Shown here piece by piece: positions 4,350-11,643 of a stretch of DNA of 64,000 nucleotides. Both the position numbers and the translations under genes were made by a program. This DNA is from a phage, in the sequence record PZ583738.1. The stretch is one strand, 5' to 3'. Under the pieces are notes generated by a model. The model ran no database searches, was not told the DNA's origin, and saw nothing but the letters and a program-made list of their open reading frames with translations. Each line of letters begins with the position of its first letter. Position 1 is the stretch's first letter.

Positions 4350-5074
4350 TGAATTATAAGAAAATATATGATTCTCTAATTGAGAGGCGGAAAGCCTCTC
4401 CTTTAGAAGGCTATACCGAATCCCATCATATTATTCCCAAATGCATGGGCGGCACAGATGACAAATCCAATTTAGTTAAATTATCAGCTCGAGAACATTT
4501 CGTTGCGCATCAATTACTGTACAAAATATATAGAACTCATGGATTACTTTGTGCTATTACATTAATGTGTACGGATAAATTTGGTAATAGATTGAATAAT
4601 CGATTATATGAATGGCATAGACTTAGATTTGCAGAGTCCTCTTCCAAACATATGAAAGAATATTTTAAAAATAATCCACATCCAAAGGGAATGTTAGGTA
4701 AGCATCATTCCGATAAATCTAAAGAACAAGTTTCAATTGCAAATAGAACTTCGGTTCCATCAATTAAAATTTTCAAATTTGATTTAGCCGGAAAATTTAT
4801 TGAAAGCTTCCAGTCAATTGCCGAAGCTGCTCGGCATGTTAACGGTAATGCATCAAATCTAAAATATTGTGCAGAAGGGAAATTCCAATATGCATATGGA
4901 TTCAGATGGTCATATAAACCGGATGCAACCTTTGCAGAAGTCAAGGACCGAGCATATAAAGGAATACGCGGTAAAATTTGGATTAATGATGGCTCATCTT
5001 GTACGCTTATAGAAAAGGGTGGTATTATACCTTCAGGTTGGAAACGTGGAAGAATTTTAAAGAGGAAAAATTAA
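4349..5074 (+). CDS. mobE: freestanding HNH homing endonuclease (MobE-like) between nrdA and nrdB
   Basis: HNH motif (ESHHIIPK...GG.D...N...REH..AH) at N-terminus; C-terminal NUMOD1-like helix (FQSIAEAARHVNGNASNLKYCAEGK...GFRW); same position as T4 mobE; start overlaps nrdA stop, stop overlaps nrdB start. Confidence 0.85.
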   Translation: MNYKKIYDSLIERRKASPLEGYTESHHIIPKCMGGTDDKSNLVKLSAREHFVAHQLLYKIYRTHGLLCAITLMCTDKFGNRLNNRLYEWHRLRFAESSSKHMKEYFKNNPHPKGMLGKHHSDKSKEQVSIANRTSVPSIKIFKFDLAGKFIESFQSIAEAARHVNGNASNLKYCAEGKFQYAYGFRWSYKPDATFAEVKDRAYKGIRGKIWINDGSSCTLIEKGGIIPSGWKRGRILKRKN

Positions 5075-6252
5075 TGAGTACAGTTTTTAATACCACTCCG
5101 GTGAATGTTTTAGCCGAGCCGATGTTCTTCGGTTCTGGATTGGGCATCGCCCGTTATGATATCCAGCGACACAAACAGTTTGAAGAGTTGACAGAGCGTC
5201 AACTCTCGTACTTCTGGCGGCCCGAGGAAGTCAACCTGATGATGGATGGAGCCCAATTTAATAAGCTTCCTGAACATCAACAAAATATTTTTACCAACAA
5301 CCTGAAATACCAATCACTTCTGGATAGTATCCAGGGACGTGCTCCAGCTGCAGCATTAGCCGCATTAGTTTCCGACCCGAGTCTTGATACATGGATTCAG
5401 ACCTGGACATTCAGCGAGACAATTCACTCTCGTTCTTATACGCACATCATGCGAAATCTCTATACTGACCCGGCGAAGGTATTCGACGAAATCCTGTTAG
5501 ATGATGCAATCATGAAGCGCGCAGAATCCATTGGTCATTACTATGATGATGTTCTGAATAAAACTCGTCAATGGCAAAACCAGATTGCTTTTGTTGAACT
5601 GGCCAAAGAAACTCCCGAAGCAGATGAACGTTTGGAACGGGCTATCAAACAAGAAGCTATTGCCAAACGAGCATTGATGAAGTCTCTTTATCTCTGCCTG
5701 CATGTCATTAATGCCCTGGAAGCTATTCGTTTTTATGTATCTTTCGCATGTACTTTCAACTTCCATAAGAACATGGAAATCATGGAAGGCAATGCGAAGA
5801 TAATGAAGTTCATCGCCCGTGATGAACAGCTCCACCTTAAGGGGACCCAATATATTCTTCGTCAGCTGCAGACTGGTGTTGACGGTGACGAATGGGTTAA
5901 AATCGCGCACGAATGTGAAGCAGAAGCCGCAGCCATTTTCATGGAAGTTAATCGCCAGGAAAAAGAATGGGCCATGCATCTGTTTAAAGATGGTGGACTC
6001 CCTGGGTTGAGCGTCGAGATTCTTAACCGGTTCATCGATTACCTTACAGTTTCTCGTATGAAGCAATGCGGTCTCCCGTGTGAAATCGTGTTAGAATCTA
6101 CTAAGCACCCGATTCCATGGATTCGCGAATATCTTAACTCTGATAATGTGCAATCTGCACCACAAGAAGTTGAGTTGTCTGCTTACCTGGTAGCCCAGAT
6201 TGACAATGACGTCGATGAGAATGTTCTTGCTGGTTTCCGTAAATATCTATAA
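5074..6252 (+). CDS. nrdB: ribonucleoside-diphosphate reductase small subunit, uninterrupted (no intron)
   Basis: N-terminus MSTVFNTTPVNVLAEPMFFG matches T4 NrdB; ORF-track start at 4999 rejected in favour of the ATG at 5074 that overlaps the mobE stop. Confidence 0.95.
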   Translation: MSTVFNTTPVNVLAEPMFFGSGLGIARYDIQRHKQFEELTERQLSYFWRPEEVNLMMDGAQFNKLPEHQQNIFTNNLKYQSLLDSIQGRAPAAALAALVSDPSLDTWIQTWTFSETIHSRSYTHIMRNLYTDPAKVFDEILLDDAIMKRAESIGHYYDDVLNKTRQWQNQIAFVELAKETPEADERLERAIKQEAIAKRALMKSLYLCLHVINALEAIRFYVSFACTFNFHKNMEIMEGNAKIMKFIARDEQLHLKGTQYILRQLQTGVDGDEWVKIAHECEAEAAAIFMEVNRQEKEWAMHLFKDGGLPGLSVEILNRFIDYLTVSRMKQCGLPCEIVLESTKHPIPWIREYLNSDNVQSAPQEVELSAYLVAQIDNDVDENVLAGFRKYL

Positions 6253-6256
6253 GGAA

Positions 6257-6274
6257 AGGGCTTCGGCCCTTTTT
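6257..6274 (+). terminator. hairpin (AGGGC-TTCG-GCCCT) plus T5 between nrdB and denA
   Basis: Read directly; T-run abuts denA RBS region. Confidence 0.55.
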
Positions 6275-6278
6275 GCCC

Positions 6279-6689
6279 ATGAAACAAATCGCTGATGAAT
6301 ACAGTTTTATAAAATACGCGGAGTTAGAGTTAGTCGATGGTAAAATCCCTATCCTTACTCTCGCAAACAAGAAAAATGTTATCTATGCTATTTCAGTTGA
6401 TGATGAACTAGTGTATATTGGTAAGACGAACAACCTTAAGAAGCGTATCAACTATTACCGGACTGCAATTAACCGAATCGAACAGACGAGTGATTCAAAC
6501 AAATCCCGGATGATACATGAAGCTTTACAAGAAGGTAAAAAGGTGATATTCTATGCACGACAATGTTTCAATCTGTCAATGACCAATGAACTTGGCACAA
6601 TGTCAGTCGAAACGATGTCTCTAGAAGAGCCGATGTTCATCAAGCTTTTTAATCCCCCGTGGAATTACCAACATAAGGTGAAGAAATGA
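6279..6689 (+). CDS. denA: endonuclease II
   Basis: 136 aa from ATG at 6279 (MKQIADEYSFIKY...GKTNNLKKRINYYRTAINR) closely matches T4 DenA; track start 6273 is a TTG. Confidence 0.93.
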   Translation: MKQIADEYSFIKYAELELVDGKIPILTLANKKNVIYAISVDDELVYIGKTNNLKKRINYYRTAINRIEQTSDSNKSRMIHEALQEGKKVIFYARQCFNLSMTNELGTMSVETMSLEEPMFIKLFNPPWNYQHKVKK

Positions 6690-7822
6690 TTGAATTATAT
6701 GATAACTTAATGAAGCTTTGCGCCGAATCCGATAAAGGTAAGTTTTTCTATACGGATTTTGTTTCTCCATTTGAAACTAAGTTCCGCATCTTTAGCTATA
6801 ACTATGCTTCCTATAGTGATTGGCTTCTTGATGATGCGCTGGAGTGCCGTGGCATTATGTTTGAAATGGATGACAATGGTCCAGTTCGCATTGCTGCCCG
6901 TCCTATGGAAAAATTCTTTAATCTGGGTGAGAATCCAATGACCATGGACCTTAACCTTGATGAGGTTGTCCTGGTTACTGCAAAAGCTGATGGTAGCTTG
7001 GTTTCTACTTATATGGACCAGACTAATATCGCCTTTAAATCCAAAGGGTCAATCAAAAGCTCCCAAGCTGCTGAATCCTTGCAGGTGTTTAAACAAGAGC
7101 ATCGCAGTGCATTCAGGGCTCGCGTAACTGAAATCACTGAAGCTGGTTATACATGCAATATGGAATATGTTGCACCAACCAACCGCATTGTTTTGCCTTA
7201 CCAGGAACGTGACCTGATTTTACTGAACGTTCGTCATAATGAAACTGGCGAATATATTCCTTATCGGGAATTGTTCAAAGATGCTGCACTCCGTCCTTTC
7301 CTGGTTGAAGCATATGACCTGGCGAGCATTGAGAATGTTCGTGGTATGAAAGAGATTGAAGGTTTCGTCTATGAGCTGGCAAGTGGTCAGAAGTTCAAGC
7401 TGAAAACAGAATGGTATTGTGCTCTGCATCATACTAAAGACTCCATTAATAATAATGAGCGTCTGTTTGAAGTTGTTGTTGCTGGCGGGGCAGATGATGT
7501 TATTGCCATGTTTACTGGCGATACTTATGCTCGTGAAAAAGTTACTGCCTTTACTGTAACGCATCTGGATTATCTGTCCAATACACTGGGATTATTGCTT
7601 GATGCTCAGAAACAATTGGCAGGAAAAGACCGCCGCGAGTTTGCGATTAAAGGTCAAGAGTTGTGCAAACCATACCCGGGATTGTTCTCCGTATTAATGA
7701 ACACCTATCAACGCCCACAGGAAACTGAACAAACGATTGCTCAAATCAATAAAGTTTTCCTTAAAAATCATAAACTTTACATTCCGTCGGACTACCAAGC
7801 GGAAGTAATCCTTCCTGAATAA
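6686..7822 (+). CDS. rnlA: RNA ligase 1 (gene 63)
   Basis: 378 aa; KADGSL ligase motif I region and colinearity with T4 Rnl1 (IFSYNYASYSDWLL...ALECRGIMFEMD). Confidence 0.95.
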   Translation: MIELYDNLMKLCAESDKGKFFYTDFVSPFETKFRIFSYNYASYSDWLLDDALECRGIMFEMDDNGPVRIAARPMEKFFNLGENPMTMDLNLDEVVLVTAKADGSLVSTYMDQTNIAFKSKGSIKSSQAAESLQVFKQEHRSAFRARVTEITEAGYTCNMEYVAPTNRIVLPYQERDLILLNVRHNETGEYIPYRELFKDAALRPFLVEAYDLASIENVRGMKEIEGFVYELASGQKFKLKTEWYCALHHTKDSINNNERLFEVVVAGGADDVIAMFTGDTYAREKVTAFTVTHLDYLSNTLGLLLDAQKQLAGKDRREFAIKGQELCKPYPGLFSVLMNTYQRPQETEQTIAQINKVFLKNHKLYIPSDYQAEVILPE

Positions 7823-7825
7823 TAA

Positions 7826-7850
7826 AAAAGGGGTGTACAAGCCCCTTCTT
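7826..7850 (+). terminator. hairpin (AAGGGG...CCCCTT) after rnlA, embedding an early promoter -35
   Basis: Weak T-run (CTTCTTTCT). Confidence 0.45.
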
Positions 7851-7862
7851 TCTATACATAAT
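7833..7862 (+). promoter_or_regulatory. early promoter (GTGTAC -35, 18-nt spacer, CATAAT -10)
   Basis: -35 lies inside the loop of the post-rnlA hairpin; upstream of the alc-paralog ORF. Confidence 0.55.
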
Positions 7863-7893
7863 GGTTCCATCAACTACTGATGAGGACCAAAAC

Positions 7894-8127
7894 ATGTTAA
7901 ACTTAATTACAAATGACAGAGTTACACAGGCATATGGTGACAGAAATGATGGAATCTATGTCTATAAGGGAGACCGCCGGATTGGTTTCATTACTGACCT
8001 AAAGGCCAAATTGTTAAAAGAACTGAAAGCTCAAACAGGTGATTCCGGGTTTAGAGCAAGAGCCAAAAAGAAAGATGAGCGCCTGGGTGCCAACTCTTTT
8101 GGTCCCCGGGGTTATAACCGCTACTAA
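7894..8127 (+). CDS. hypothetical protein, paralog of the Alc N-terminal region
   Basis: 77 aa from internal ATG with GAGGA RBS; shares YGDR(N/H)DGIYVYKG..IG..TDL..KL block with the downstream alc-like ORF, then a Lys/Arg-rich tail. Confidence 0.5.
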   Translation: MLNLITNDRVTQAYGDRNDGIYVYKGDRRIGFITDLKAKLLKELKAQTGDSGFRARAKKKDERLGANSFGPRGYNRY

Positions 8128-8140
8128 TGAGGAAAATATT

Positions 8141-8644
8141 ATGGATATGCAACTGATTTCAAATGAAATGATTGTCAATGAATATGGTGACCGTCATGAC
8201 GGAATTTATGTCTATAAAGGGACCAAGAAAATTGGTCTTATGACTGACCTGCGGAAAAAACTCGCCTCTAACAAAAAGTTGAAGGCGAAACAAAAAGAAT
8301 ATCGCGATAAAAAATCAGAAGAGCGGAAAGAAGCACTGCATGAATCTGTTCCTGAAATGGTTGAATTCTTAAAGAACCATTTGGTTAAATATGATGCAGA
8401 AGTGTTCATTAACCAGACCCAACCTAATGTACATATCAATGGATGTGTTTGTTATGTTGTGGTTGAACCCCTGACACTTCAACACCGCCTGGGAATTAAA
8501 CACCCAGTGTTAACCCAGGATGATATGGCGGATGAAGTTGGTAATCAGTTCCGCATTTCAGCGTCTGACAGTACAAATCACATCCTCCTGAATGGTTTAT
8601 CCCAGGATGATATTGTTGAGGTAATCATCAAGTTATGCAAATAA
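8141..8644 (+). CDS. alc: Alc-like protein (host transcription terminator for cytosine-containing DNA)
   Basis: 167 aa from ATG at 8141 with GAGGA RBS; size and position between rnlA and the spanins match T4 alc; sequence identity to T4 Alc not verified. Confidence 0.65.
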   Translation: MDMQLISNEMIVNEYGDRHDGIYVYKGTKKIGLMTDLRKKLASNKKLKAKQKEYRDKKSEERKEALHESVPEMVEFLKNHLVKYDAEVFINQTQPNVHINGCVCYVVVEPLTLQHRLGIKHPVLTQDDMADEVGNQFRISASDSTNHILLNGLSQDDIVEVIIKLCK

Positions 8645-8988
8645 GTAATCTCACTGCAGGGCTTATGCTCGCCCTGGTAGTAACTGCTGGTAGTGGTTTC
8701 TATCTAAAAGCAAAAGTAGATAATCTCAAGACAGAGGTGGCTGCGGTCACCAAAGTTGCAGAAGATAACGCGAAAAATCTGCAATCAGTAAAAGACCAAA
8801 TTAATCAAATTAATCTCCTTGACCAGGAGCGGCAGGAATATGTTGAACTTCTGCAGAAGGAAAATGATAAACTCCGTGCAGATGCAAAACGTACTAAGGT
8901 TGTGGTAGCGAAGCCTAAATTAGTTGAAAAACAGATTAATCAGTCTTTTGATAAGTTCGCCCGGGACTTCCAGGAGCTCACCAAATGA
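8635..8988 (+). CDS. i-spanin (PseT.3-like)
   Basis: N-terminal TM segment (LTAGLMLALVVTAGSGF) followed by coiled-coil-rich periplasmic region; precedes lipoprotein ORF; T4 pseT.3 position. Confidence 0.75.
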   Translation: MQISNLTAGLMLALVVTAGSGFYLKAKVDNLKTEVAAVTKVAEDNAKNLQSVKDQINQINLLDQERQEYVELLQKENDKLRADAKRTKVVVAKPKLVEKQINQSFDKFARDFQELTK

Positions 8989-9378: not shown

Positions 9379-9408
9379 GTGTACAAACTCATGGGAGCAG
9401 AGTATAAT
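9379..9408 (+). promoter_or_regulatory. early promoter (GTGTAC -35, TATAAT -10)
   Basis: Upstream of ORF 9442. Confidence 0.5.
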
Positions 9409-11614: not shown

Positions 11615-11643
11615 GTTTACTTTCACCACGGATGGTGTATAAT
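11615..11643 (+). promoter_or_regulatory. early promoter (GTTTAC -35, 17-nt spacer, TATAAT -10)
   Basis: Upstream of ORF 11673. Confidence 0.6.

Follow-up and report, generated by a model that had tools for sequence, protein, structure and literature searches.

On DNA that contains cytosine, elongation by host RNA polymerase is terminated by the phage protein Alc. Its action is blocked by mutations in dispensable region I of the RNA polymerase beta subunit, and the mechanism by which it stops transcription on unmodified DNA remains unexplained decades after its discovery (PMC2988021). Alc is also without a solved structure, as a sequence search of the Protein Data Bank with the protein returned no match. 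T4 carries a single alc gene, which sits directly after rnlA, as the first-pass annotation of the locus described below had stated. Larger regulators, among them plant and animal transcription factors, can have short paralogs that retain only the interaction domain of the parent, and these are known as microProteins or small interfering peptides.

A short relative of alc has been on record in T4-like phages since 2010, when the genome of Shigella phage SP18 (GQ981382) was entered with a long gene named 'alca' and a short gene named 'alcb' (ADO19581.1), the latter with the remark 'similar to N-terminal region of bacteriophage JS98 Alc'. The same short gene appears in phage VR7 as VR7ORF243c (ADR32618.1), described as 'similar to T4 Alc', and as the protein family PHROG 17715 (77 positions), which is labelled 'inhibitor of host transcription'. 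In all of these entries the gene encodes 77 aa, lies between rnlA and alc and is 95-100% identical to the one analysed here, which matches PHROG 17715 end to end (1-77, E=1.1e-53) and shows no material difference from any of them. The exact protein sequence is already present on 7 contigs in public collections, and its 90% cluster holds 38 distinct members. The gene is therefore catalogued and not new, and what the present analysis adds is context; a literature search on alcb found no functional study and no report of expression or interaction in any phage.

The DNA analysed, referred to here as the window, is a stretch of 64,000 nucleotides (PZ583738.1) that, judged by its sequence, comes from a T4-like phage of the genus Gaprivervirus. 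Over positions 6686-8700 it shares 98.3% nucleotide identity with Escherichia phage DK-13, and 33 further records (VR7, VR20, VR25, VR26, SP18, the TH series and others) are 90-98% identical over the same interval. The gene order on the + strand is nrdB, denA, rnlA, the 77-aa ORF, alc, the spanin genes pseT.3 and pseT.2 and, farther on, pseT. The features needed in what follows are these:

4999-6252, + strand: nrdB.
6273-6689, + strand: denA.
6686..7822, + strand: rnlA (RNA ligase 1), the upstream neighbour, with its stop codon at 7820-7822 (Pfam, PHROG).
7828..7847, + strand: GC-rich hairpin with a 7-bp stem and a 6-nt loop (AAGGGGT/GTACAA/GCCCCTT), followed by an interrupted T-tract, TTCTTTCT (terminator scan).
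7833..7862, + strand: predicted early-type sigma-70 promoter, with -35 GTGTAC(A) at 7833-7839, a 17-bp spacer and -10 CATAAT at 7857-7862 (scan).
7882..7886, + strand: ribosome-binding site GAGGA of the short gene, 7 nt before its ATG (read from the sequence).
7894..8127, + strand: alcB-like short gene, 77 aa, 8.8 kDa, pI 10.0, with a predicted N-terminus of MLNLITND.
8086..8124, + strand: conserved C-terminal motif of the short protein, aa 65-77, GANSFGPRGYNRY (alignment with the orthologs on metagenomic contigs L015, L016 and L017).
8129..8133, + strand: ribosome-binding site GAGGA of alc, within the 13-nt intergenic gap (read from the sequence).
8141..8644, + strand: alc (alcA), full-length Alc, 167 aa.

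The two flanking genes are readily identified, rnlA by the Pfam families T4_Rnl1_C (6e-41) and RNA_lig_T4_1 (1e-23) and by PHROG 562, and alc by the Pfam family ALC (PF17527; 164.9 bits, 1.8e-48, profile positions 1-176 of 177) and PHROG 1253 (1.6e-73); the Alc protein of the window is 56% identical to that of T4.

The first-pass annotation had proposed that the 77-aa ORF shares a block of ~45 aa with the N-terminus of the adjacent 167-aa alc ORF, and while the paralogy stands, the length does not, because the similarity spans ~60 aa. The pairwise alignment suggested as a check is significant, with 31 identities over 64 aligned residues (48%; 69% positives; BLASTP, E=5e-17), and the Pfam ALC profile, which has a curated cut-off of 25 bits, matches the short ORF with 40.4 bits (E=3e-10) at profile positions 3-62 of 177 only. 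Against T4 Alc the short protein is 53% identical over 55 aa. Residues that are invariant in Alc proteins (G16, D20, G21, I22 and G32) or nearly so (D36 and L37) are kept at the equivalent positions of its head (G15, D19, G20, I21, G31, D35 and L36), with one deviation, G20E, in the metagenomic ortholog on L016. At the level of sequence, these alignments confirm the ORF as a true partial tandem paralog of the alc N-terminus. The full-length Alc architecture of ~165 aa, in which a head is followed by a long helix and a C-terminal alpha/beta domain, is not present in it. Searches of NCBIfam and PADLOC gave no matches for either the short protein or Alc, and the 'PRC domain' label that the short protein bears in record EAWsc9 was rejected after a Pfam scan lent it no support. 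Gene conversion between the short gene and alc was likewise rejected, as their nucleotide identity is just 53-56% and long identical tracts are absent.

Structure prediction places the boundary between the shared and the unshared parts of the two proteins. The AlphaFold2 model of Alc, for which 23 homologs were used (mean pLDDT 92.3), consists of a head at residues 1-33 (a helix at 8-15 and a beta-hairpin at 23-33), a 47-residue helix at 34-80 and an alpha/beta domain at 87-166. The model of the short protein has an Alc-type head at residues 1-32 (helix 7-14, beta-hairpin 22-32) and a helix that starts at residue 33, is assigned by DSSP to 33-53 and is confident to residue ~48, with pLDDT below 50 at 52-54. 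Residues 11-40 reach a pLDDT of about 90; for residues 51-77 it is about 50-55, which suggests disorder in the tail. The short protein is thus predicted to be an Alc head with a stub of the long helix, followed by a basic, disordered tail that replaces the remainder of Alc. Judged from sequence and model, it resembles a microProtein in being a small protein derived from a multi-domain parent, with one module kept and the effector domain missing; a conserved additional tail is atypical for simple microProteins. A search for structural neighbours with the model of the short protein returned nothing significant.

The tail had been described as Lys/Arg-rich, and residues 51-77 do carry 8 Lys and Arg against 2 Asp and Glu (pI 11.0). 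Its basic charge is kept in three lineages (pI 11-12), it includes aromatic residues, and it closes on a motif that reads LGANSFGPRGYNRY, HGANSFGPGTENKF and LGRNSFGPDGLNKF across these lineages and follows the family pattern G[AR]NSFGP..N[KR][FY]. When the DNA and protein sequences of the tail were compared with the rnlA 3' end, with alc in three frames and with the downstream genes, scores were not above those of shuffled controls, so the origin of the tail is untraceable. A search for NSFGP elsewhere in the window found a single, unrelated occurrence.

Upstream of the short gene, the promoter and the hairpin occupy nearly the same DNA. A T4-type early promoter combines a GTTTAC-like -35 element, a 17-bp spacer and a TATAAT-like -10 element ahead of an early gene, and the predicted promoter before the short gene has these properties, matching the consensus at 9 of 12 positions (TGTACA-17-CATAAT, 7834-7862); by sequence, transcription would start near A7869. 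The first-pass annotation had given the short gene its own early promoter with the -35 element inside the loop of the hairpin that follows rnlA. A predicted promoter of this type is indeed there and overlaps the hairpin, and the placement of GTGTAC (7833-7838) is approximately right, since it spans the last two stem bases and four of the six loop bases, but the promoter is not the short gene's own; it is the positional homolog of an ancestral alc promoter and would serve both genes. In T4, in Tequatrovirus vB_EcoM-G28 and on contigs L015, L017, L018 and L021, a GTTTAC...TATAAT or TATAGT promoter begins no more than a few bases from the end of rnlA, ahead of alc, and the window (GTGTACAAGCCCC...CATAAT) and T4 (GTTTACAAGTCCC...TATAGT) have theirs at an equal position with an identical beginning. 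Because this post-rnlA promoter drives alc in T4, G28 and the relatives with a single alc, the short gene appears to have inherited the ancestral alc promoter. The same promoter layout occurs at six other sites on the + strand of the window and at none on the - strand. One of these, at 9379-9408, is a second early-type promoter with the same unusual -35 variant, GTGTACAA (TGTACA-17-TATAAT, 10/12), and further GTTTAC-type sites lie at 11615, 13237, 15253, 21243 and 37118, all on the + strand.

A scan of the + strand from 7862 to 8141 found no promoter match, and thus none specific to alc. With the ancestral promoter kept by the upstream copy, the short gene and alc are now best read, from their sequence, as one two-gene early operon, and translational coupling between them is likely in view of the layout of the gap and its ribosome-binding site, both of which are conserved in the genus and on L015-L017. 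The ATGAGGA leader of the short gene is common to the alc leader of T4, and the intergenic region between rnlA and the short gene is nearly invariant in the genus (5 variable columns in 71). The start of the short gene is better placed at 7894 than at the upstream in-frame ATG at 7861, which yields the 88-aa form in the DK-13 and RZ annotations and was rejected; that ATG overlaps the -10 element and would therefore precede the inferred start of transcription, a ribosome-binding site is missing in front of it, L015 does not conserve the 11 residues that it adds, and in L017 the ATG is out of frame. L015 shares the 88-aa-type ATG arrangement (window 7861-7893), by coincidence.

The hairpin, which shares bases with the -35 element, begins 6 nt past the end of rnlA. 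Its fold of -11.1 kcal/mol (z only -1.7) is equalled by 11 of 200 shuffled sequences, so its significance is modest. An intrinsic terminator has a GC-rich stem-loop with a U-tract directly behind it; here the stem has 4 GC pairs, and the tract is interrupted (UUCUUUCU). It is nearly invariant in 12 Gaprivervirus loci and absent in T4, G28, L015, L017, L018 and L021, which makes hairpin arms flanking the -35 element, as far as these sequences go, a feature specific to Gaprivervirus. The hairpin may be a terminator of rnlA transcripts just ahead of re-initiation, on evidence that is only moderate. Rfam models applied to the intergenic region gave one sub-threshold chance match only.

The distribution of the short gene points to a single branch of the T4-like phages. 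A tblastn search found it at full length in 35 phage records at 95-100% identity, and among those records that were opened, all belong to Gaprivervirus except one with no assigned genus. Records from other T4-like genera, including the sister group JS98/IME08, give one match each, which is alc itself. Among 1.84 billion representative proteins, searched exhaustively and without a profile, phmmer found two clusters of the AlcB type, one 63-aa fragment and ordinary Alc proteins. Five long repetitive matches (P0027, P0029, P0030, P0032 and P0034), each made of 5-12 weak stretches, were set aside as repeat artefacts; their Pfam scores are almost wholly summed over repeats, and only two single stretches passed on their own. 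Outside named isolates, the metagenomic contigs L015, L016 and L017, whose Alc proteins are 76-77% identical to that of the window, have a short paralog of 77-78 aa that lies 10 nt before alc, and L018-L022 (Alc 61-64% identical) carry alc alone. The presence of the paralog on the former and not on the latter implies that the duplication is older than the genus and confined to one branch of the T4-like phages. Most likely, the short gene arose by partial tandem duplication of the ribosome-binding site and about the first 50-60 codons of alc, in a common ancestor of Gaprivervirus and some uncultured relatives.

How such a gene could have begun is illustrated, by analogy, in G28 (NC_054916.1; L002 2580-2992), where a segment made up of the rnlA 3' end, the promoter and alc codons 1-48 is repeated perfectly in tandem. 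Outside the AlcB group, no other record has two Alc matches (833 places in 797 records). The duplication yields a 63-aa Alc fragment (YP_010069786.1) and a 33-aa ORF from the tail of rnlA. Like the short gene, the G28 fragment is a copy of the alc 5' end that lies between rnlA and alc with an early promoter; unlike the short gene, it is 100% identical to its own alc over 204 nt and comes with a duplicated rnlA 3' end, and its tail derives from the junction, is not conserved and occurs in one record only. The G28 copy, which is not an ortholog of the short gene, is either an independent and very recent event or an assembly artefact.

The suggestion that the short gene is a degenerating duplicate did not survive comparison of its relatives. 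Conservation of the paralog had been named as a check, and homologs are carried by 12 Gaprivervirus loci and by L015-L017; in these and in the window the gene lies between rnlA and alc, on the same strand and with a gap to alc of no more than ~13 nt. In the window and the 12 genus loci the ORF is intact, its ribosome-binding site is conserved, and the pooled pN/pS of the short gene (0.11) is close to that of alc (0.12) and that of the rnlA end (0.11). In the tail (codons 51-77), 11 sites vary synonymously among these 13 sequences, and there are 0 replacements. Between the deep lineages synonymous sites are saturated, yet the short protein keeps its length, its head residues and its C-terminal motif. 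Purifying selection together with retention in deeply diverged relatives shows, at the sequence level, that this is a selectively maintained protein-coding gene and not a decaying one. The short protein has nevertheless changed 2-3 times faster than Alc between the deep lineages (dN 0.37-0.62 versus 0.16-0.20).

The target of Alc gives the genus a further point of interest, as its cytosine modification appears to differ from that of T4. Two surveys agree that Gaprivervirus is without the enzyme that makes hydroxymethylcytosine in T4 (PMC12115623, PMC8056088), and VR7 DNA is reported to contain modified, unglycosylated cytosines (PMC6326788). The title of a work cited there (reference 24 of PMC6326788) describes the VR phages as low-temperature phages. 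In the complete Gaprivervirus genome TH15 (L024-L027), tblastn found no match to T4 gp42, the dCMP hydroxymethylase, or to beta-glucosyltransferase, and the same search found DNA polymerase, imm and uvsX. In T4 the two missing genes lie between imm and uvsX; a divergent gp42 at that position of TH15 was considered and rejected, since the position (L027 6405-6935) is filled by a 176-aa ORF with a lipoprotein-like signal sequence.

The best explanation of these observations overall is that the short gene is a maintained, alc-derived gene whose product is co-expressed with Alc and acts as its accessory or modulator, a reading to which we give a probability of roughly 45%. The first-pass annotation had suggested a decoy or a modulator of Alc, which is a reasonable idea. 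The accessory or modulator reading is favoured by the combination of a conserved Alc module that has no C-terminal domain, production together with Alc and a conserved tail of the short protein's own. The likeness to T4 Alc lies in the homologous N-terminal ~60 residues and in the same post-rnlA early promoter context. The short protein differs from it in that the long helix stops at residue ~50 and the C-terminal alpha/beta domain is missing entirely, with no match at profile positions 63-177; a basic tail that is unrelated to them and has a conserved motif of its own stands in their place. With the end of the helix and the C-terminal domain missing, termination activity is not expected, and the short protein alone probably could not terminate transcription. 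The two proteins would be produced simultaneously, and the head of the short protein, if one assumes that it is a docking module, would bind the partner of the Alc head, most plausibly the elongation complex of host RNA polymerase, or else Alc itself. The conserved basic tail may then add a contact to nucleic acid or to another protein, and the short protein would act as an accessory to, or a modulator of, Alc-dependent host shut-off. The value of the gene would lie mainly in its use as a natural tool for dissecting Alc: a natural, selectively maintained 'head-only' Alc is a ready-made dissection of the protein, and the identity of its binding partner would reveal the role of the head. That it occurs in a genus with a different cytosine modification is a second reason for interest.

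A purely competitive role is an unlikely alternative, in which the short protein would be a decoy or dominant-negative form that competes for the docking site of Alc or draws Alc into dead-end complexes, with no specific role for the tail, and so damps its activity, for instance so that transcription of the phage itself is spared. A head with no C-terminal domain, made from one promoter with alc, is what such a competitor might look like, and tuning of Alc might help a genus that is without the hydroxymethylcytosine-making enzyme of T4 (PMC12115623, PMC8056088), although VR7 DNA is reported to have modified cytosines anyway (PMC6326788). It is the tail that makes a pure decoy less likely, since it is the most strictly conserved part of the protein within the genus (0 replacements against 11 synonymous sites) and its motif survives where just about half of the residues remain identical, and a passive competitor needs no motif.

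Improbable in its turn is an independent new function, with the head as a scaffold for a task unrelated to Alc, such as that of a small basic nucleic-acid-binding protein, and with the linkage to alc merely historical. The faster evolution of the short protein than of Alc between the deep lineages points in this direction, as does a new basic tail (pI 11-12) with aromatic residues and no trace in Alc or the flanking DNA. Set against these are the retention of every invariant head residue of the Alc family and a linkage to alc of 10-13 nt that is conserved in all lineages with the short gene. As a point against the accessory reading, the faster divergence is compatible, too, with a change of partner by the short protein.

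More speculative, and a long shot by our estimate, is the idea that the short protein has been neofunctionalised as a partner of Alc and retunes or redirects transcription shut-off in a lineage without the T4 hydroxymethylcytosine pathway. Here the head would sit on the elongation complex and the tail motif would discriminate between phage and host DNA or recruit another factor. If true, this would open the way to the first experimental assignment of functions to the parts of Alc.

Finally, that the gene is a non-functional remnant of a duplication is very improbable, for while the copy is truncated, one metagenomic sequence has a frameshifted tail and the G28 fragment shows that such remnants arise, the gene has a pN/pS like that of alc and a conserved ribosome-binding site, and 38 distinct cluster members, as well as lineages that are saturated at synonymous sites, have kept its frame and its length of 77-78 aa.

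The frameshifted sequence is P0002, a 75-aa protein from an ENA metagenome in which a deletion and frameshift past residue 56 destroy the conserved tail; it represents a loss-of-function allele that arose naturally or else an error of sequencing.

Within the genus, in the stretch that runs from the last codons of the short gene as far as alc codon 55 (window 8106-8305), alc codons 1-55 exist in two deeply divergent versions. Between the window and VR7, alc dS is 1.2 in codons 1-55 and 0.12 beyond them; these 55 codons account for 12 amino-acid differences and the remaining 112 for 3. This divergence indicates a mosaic recombination tract and makes the head the variable part of the Alc protein.
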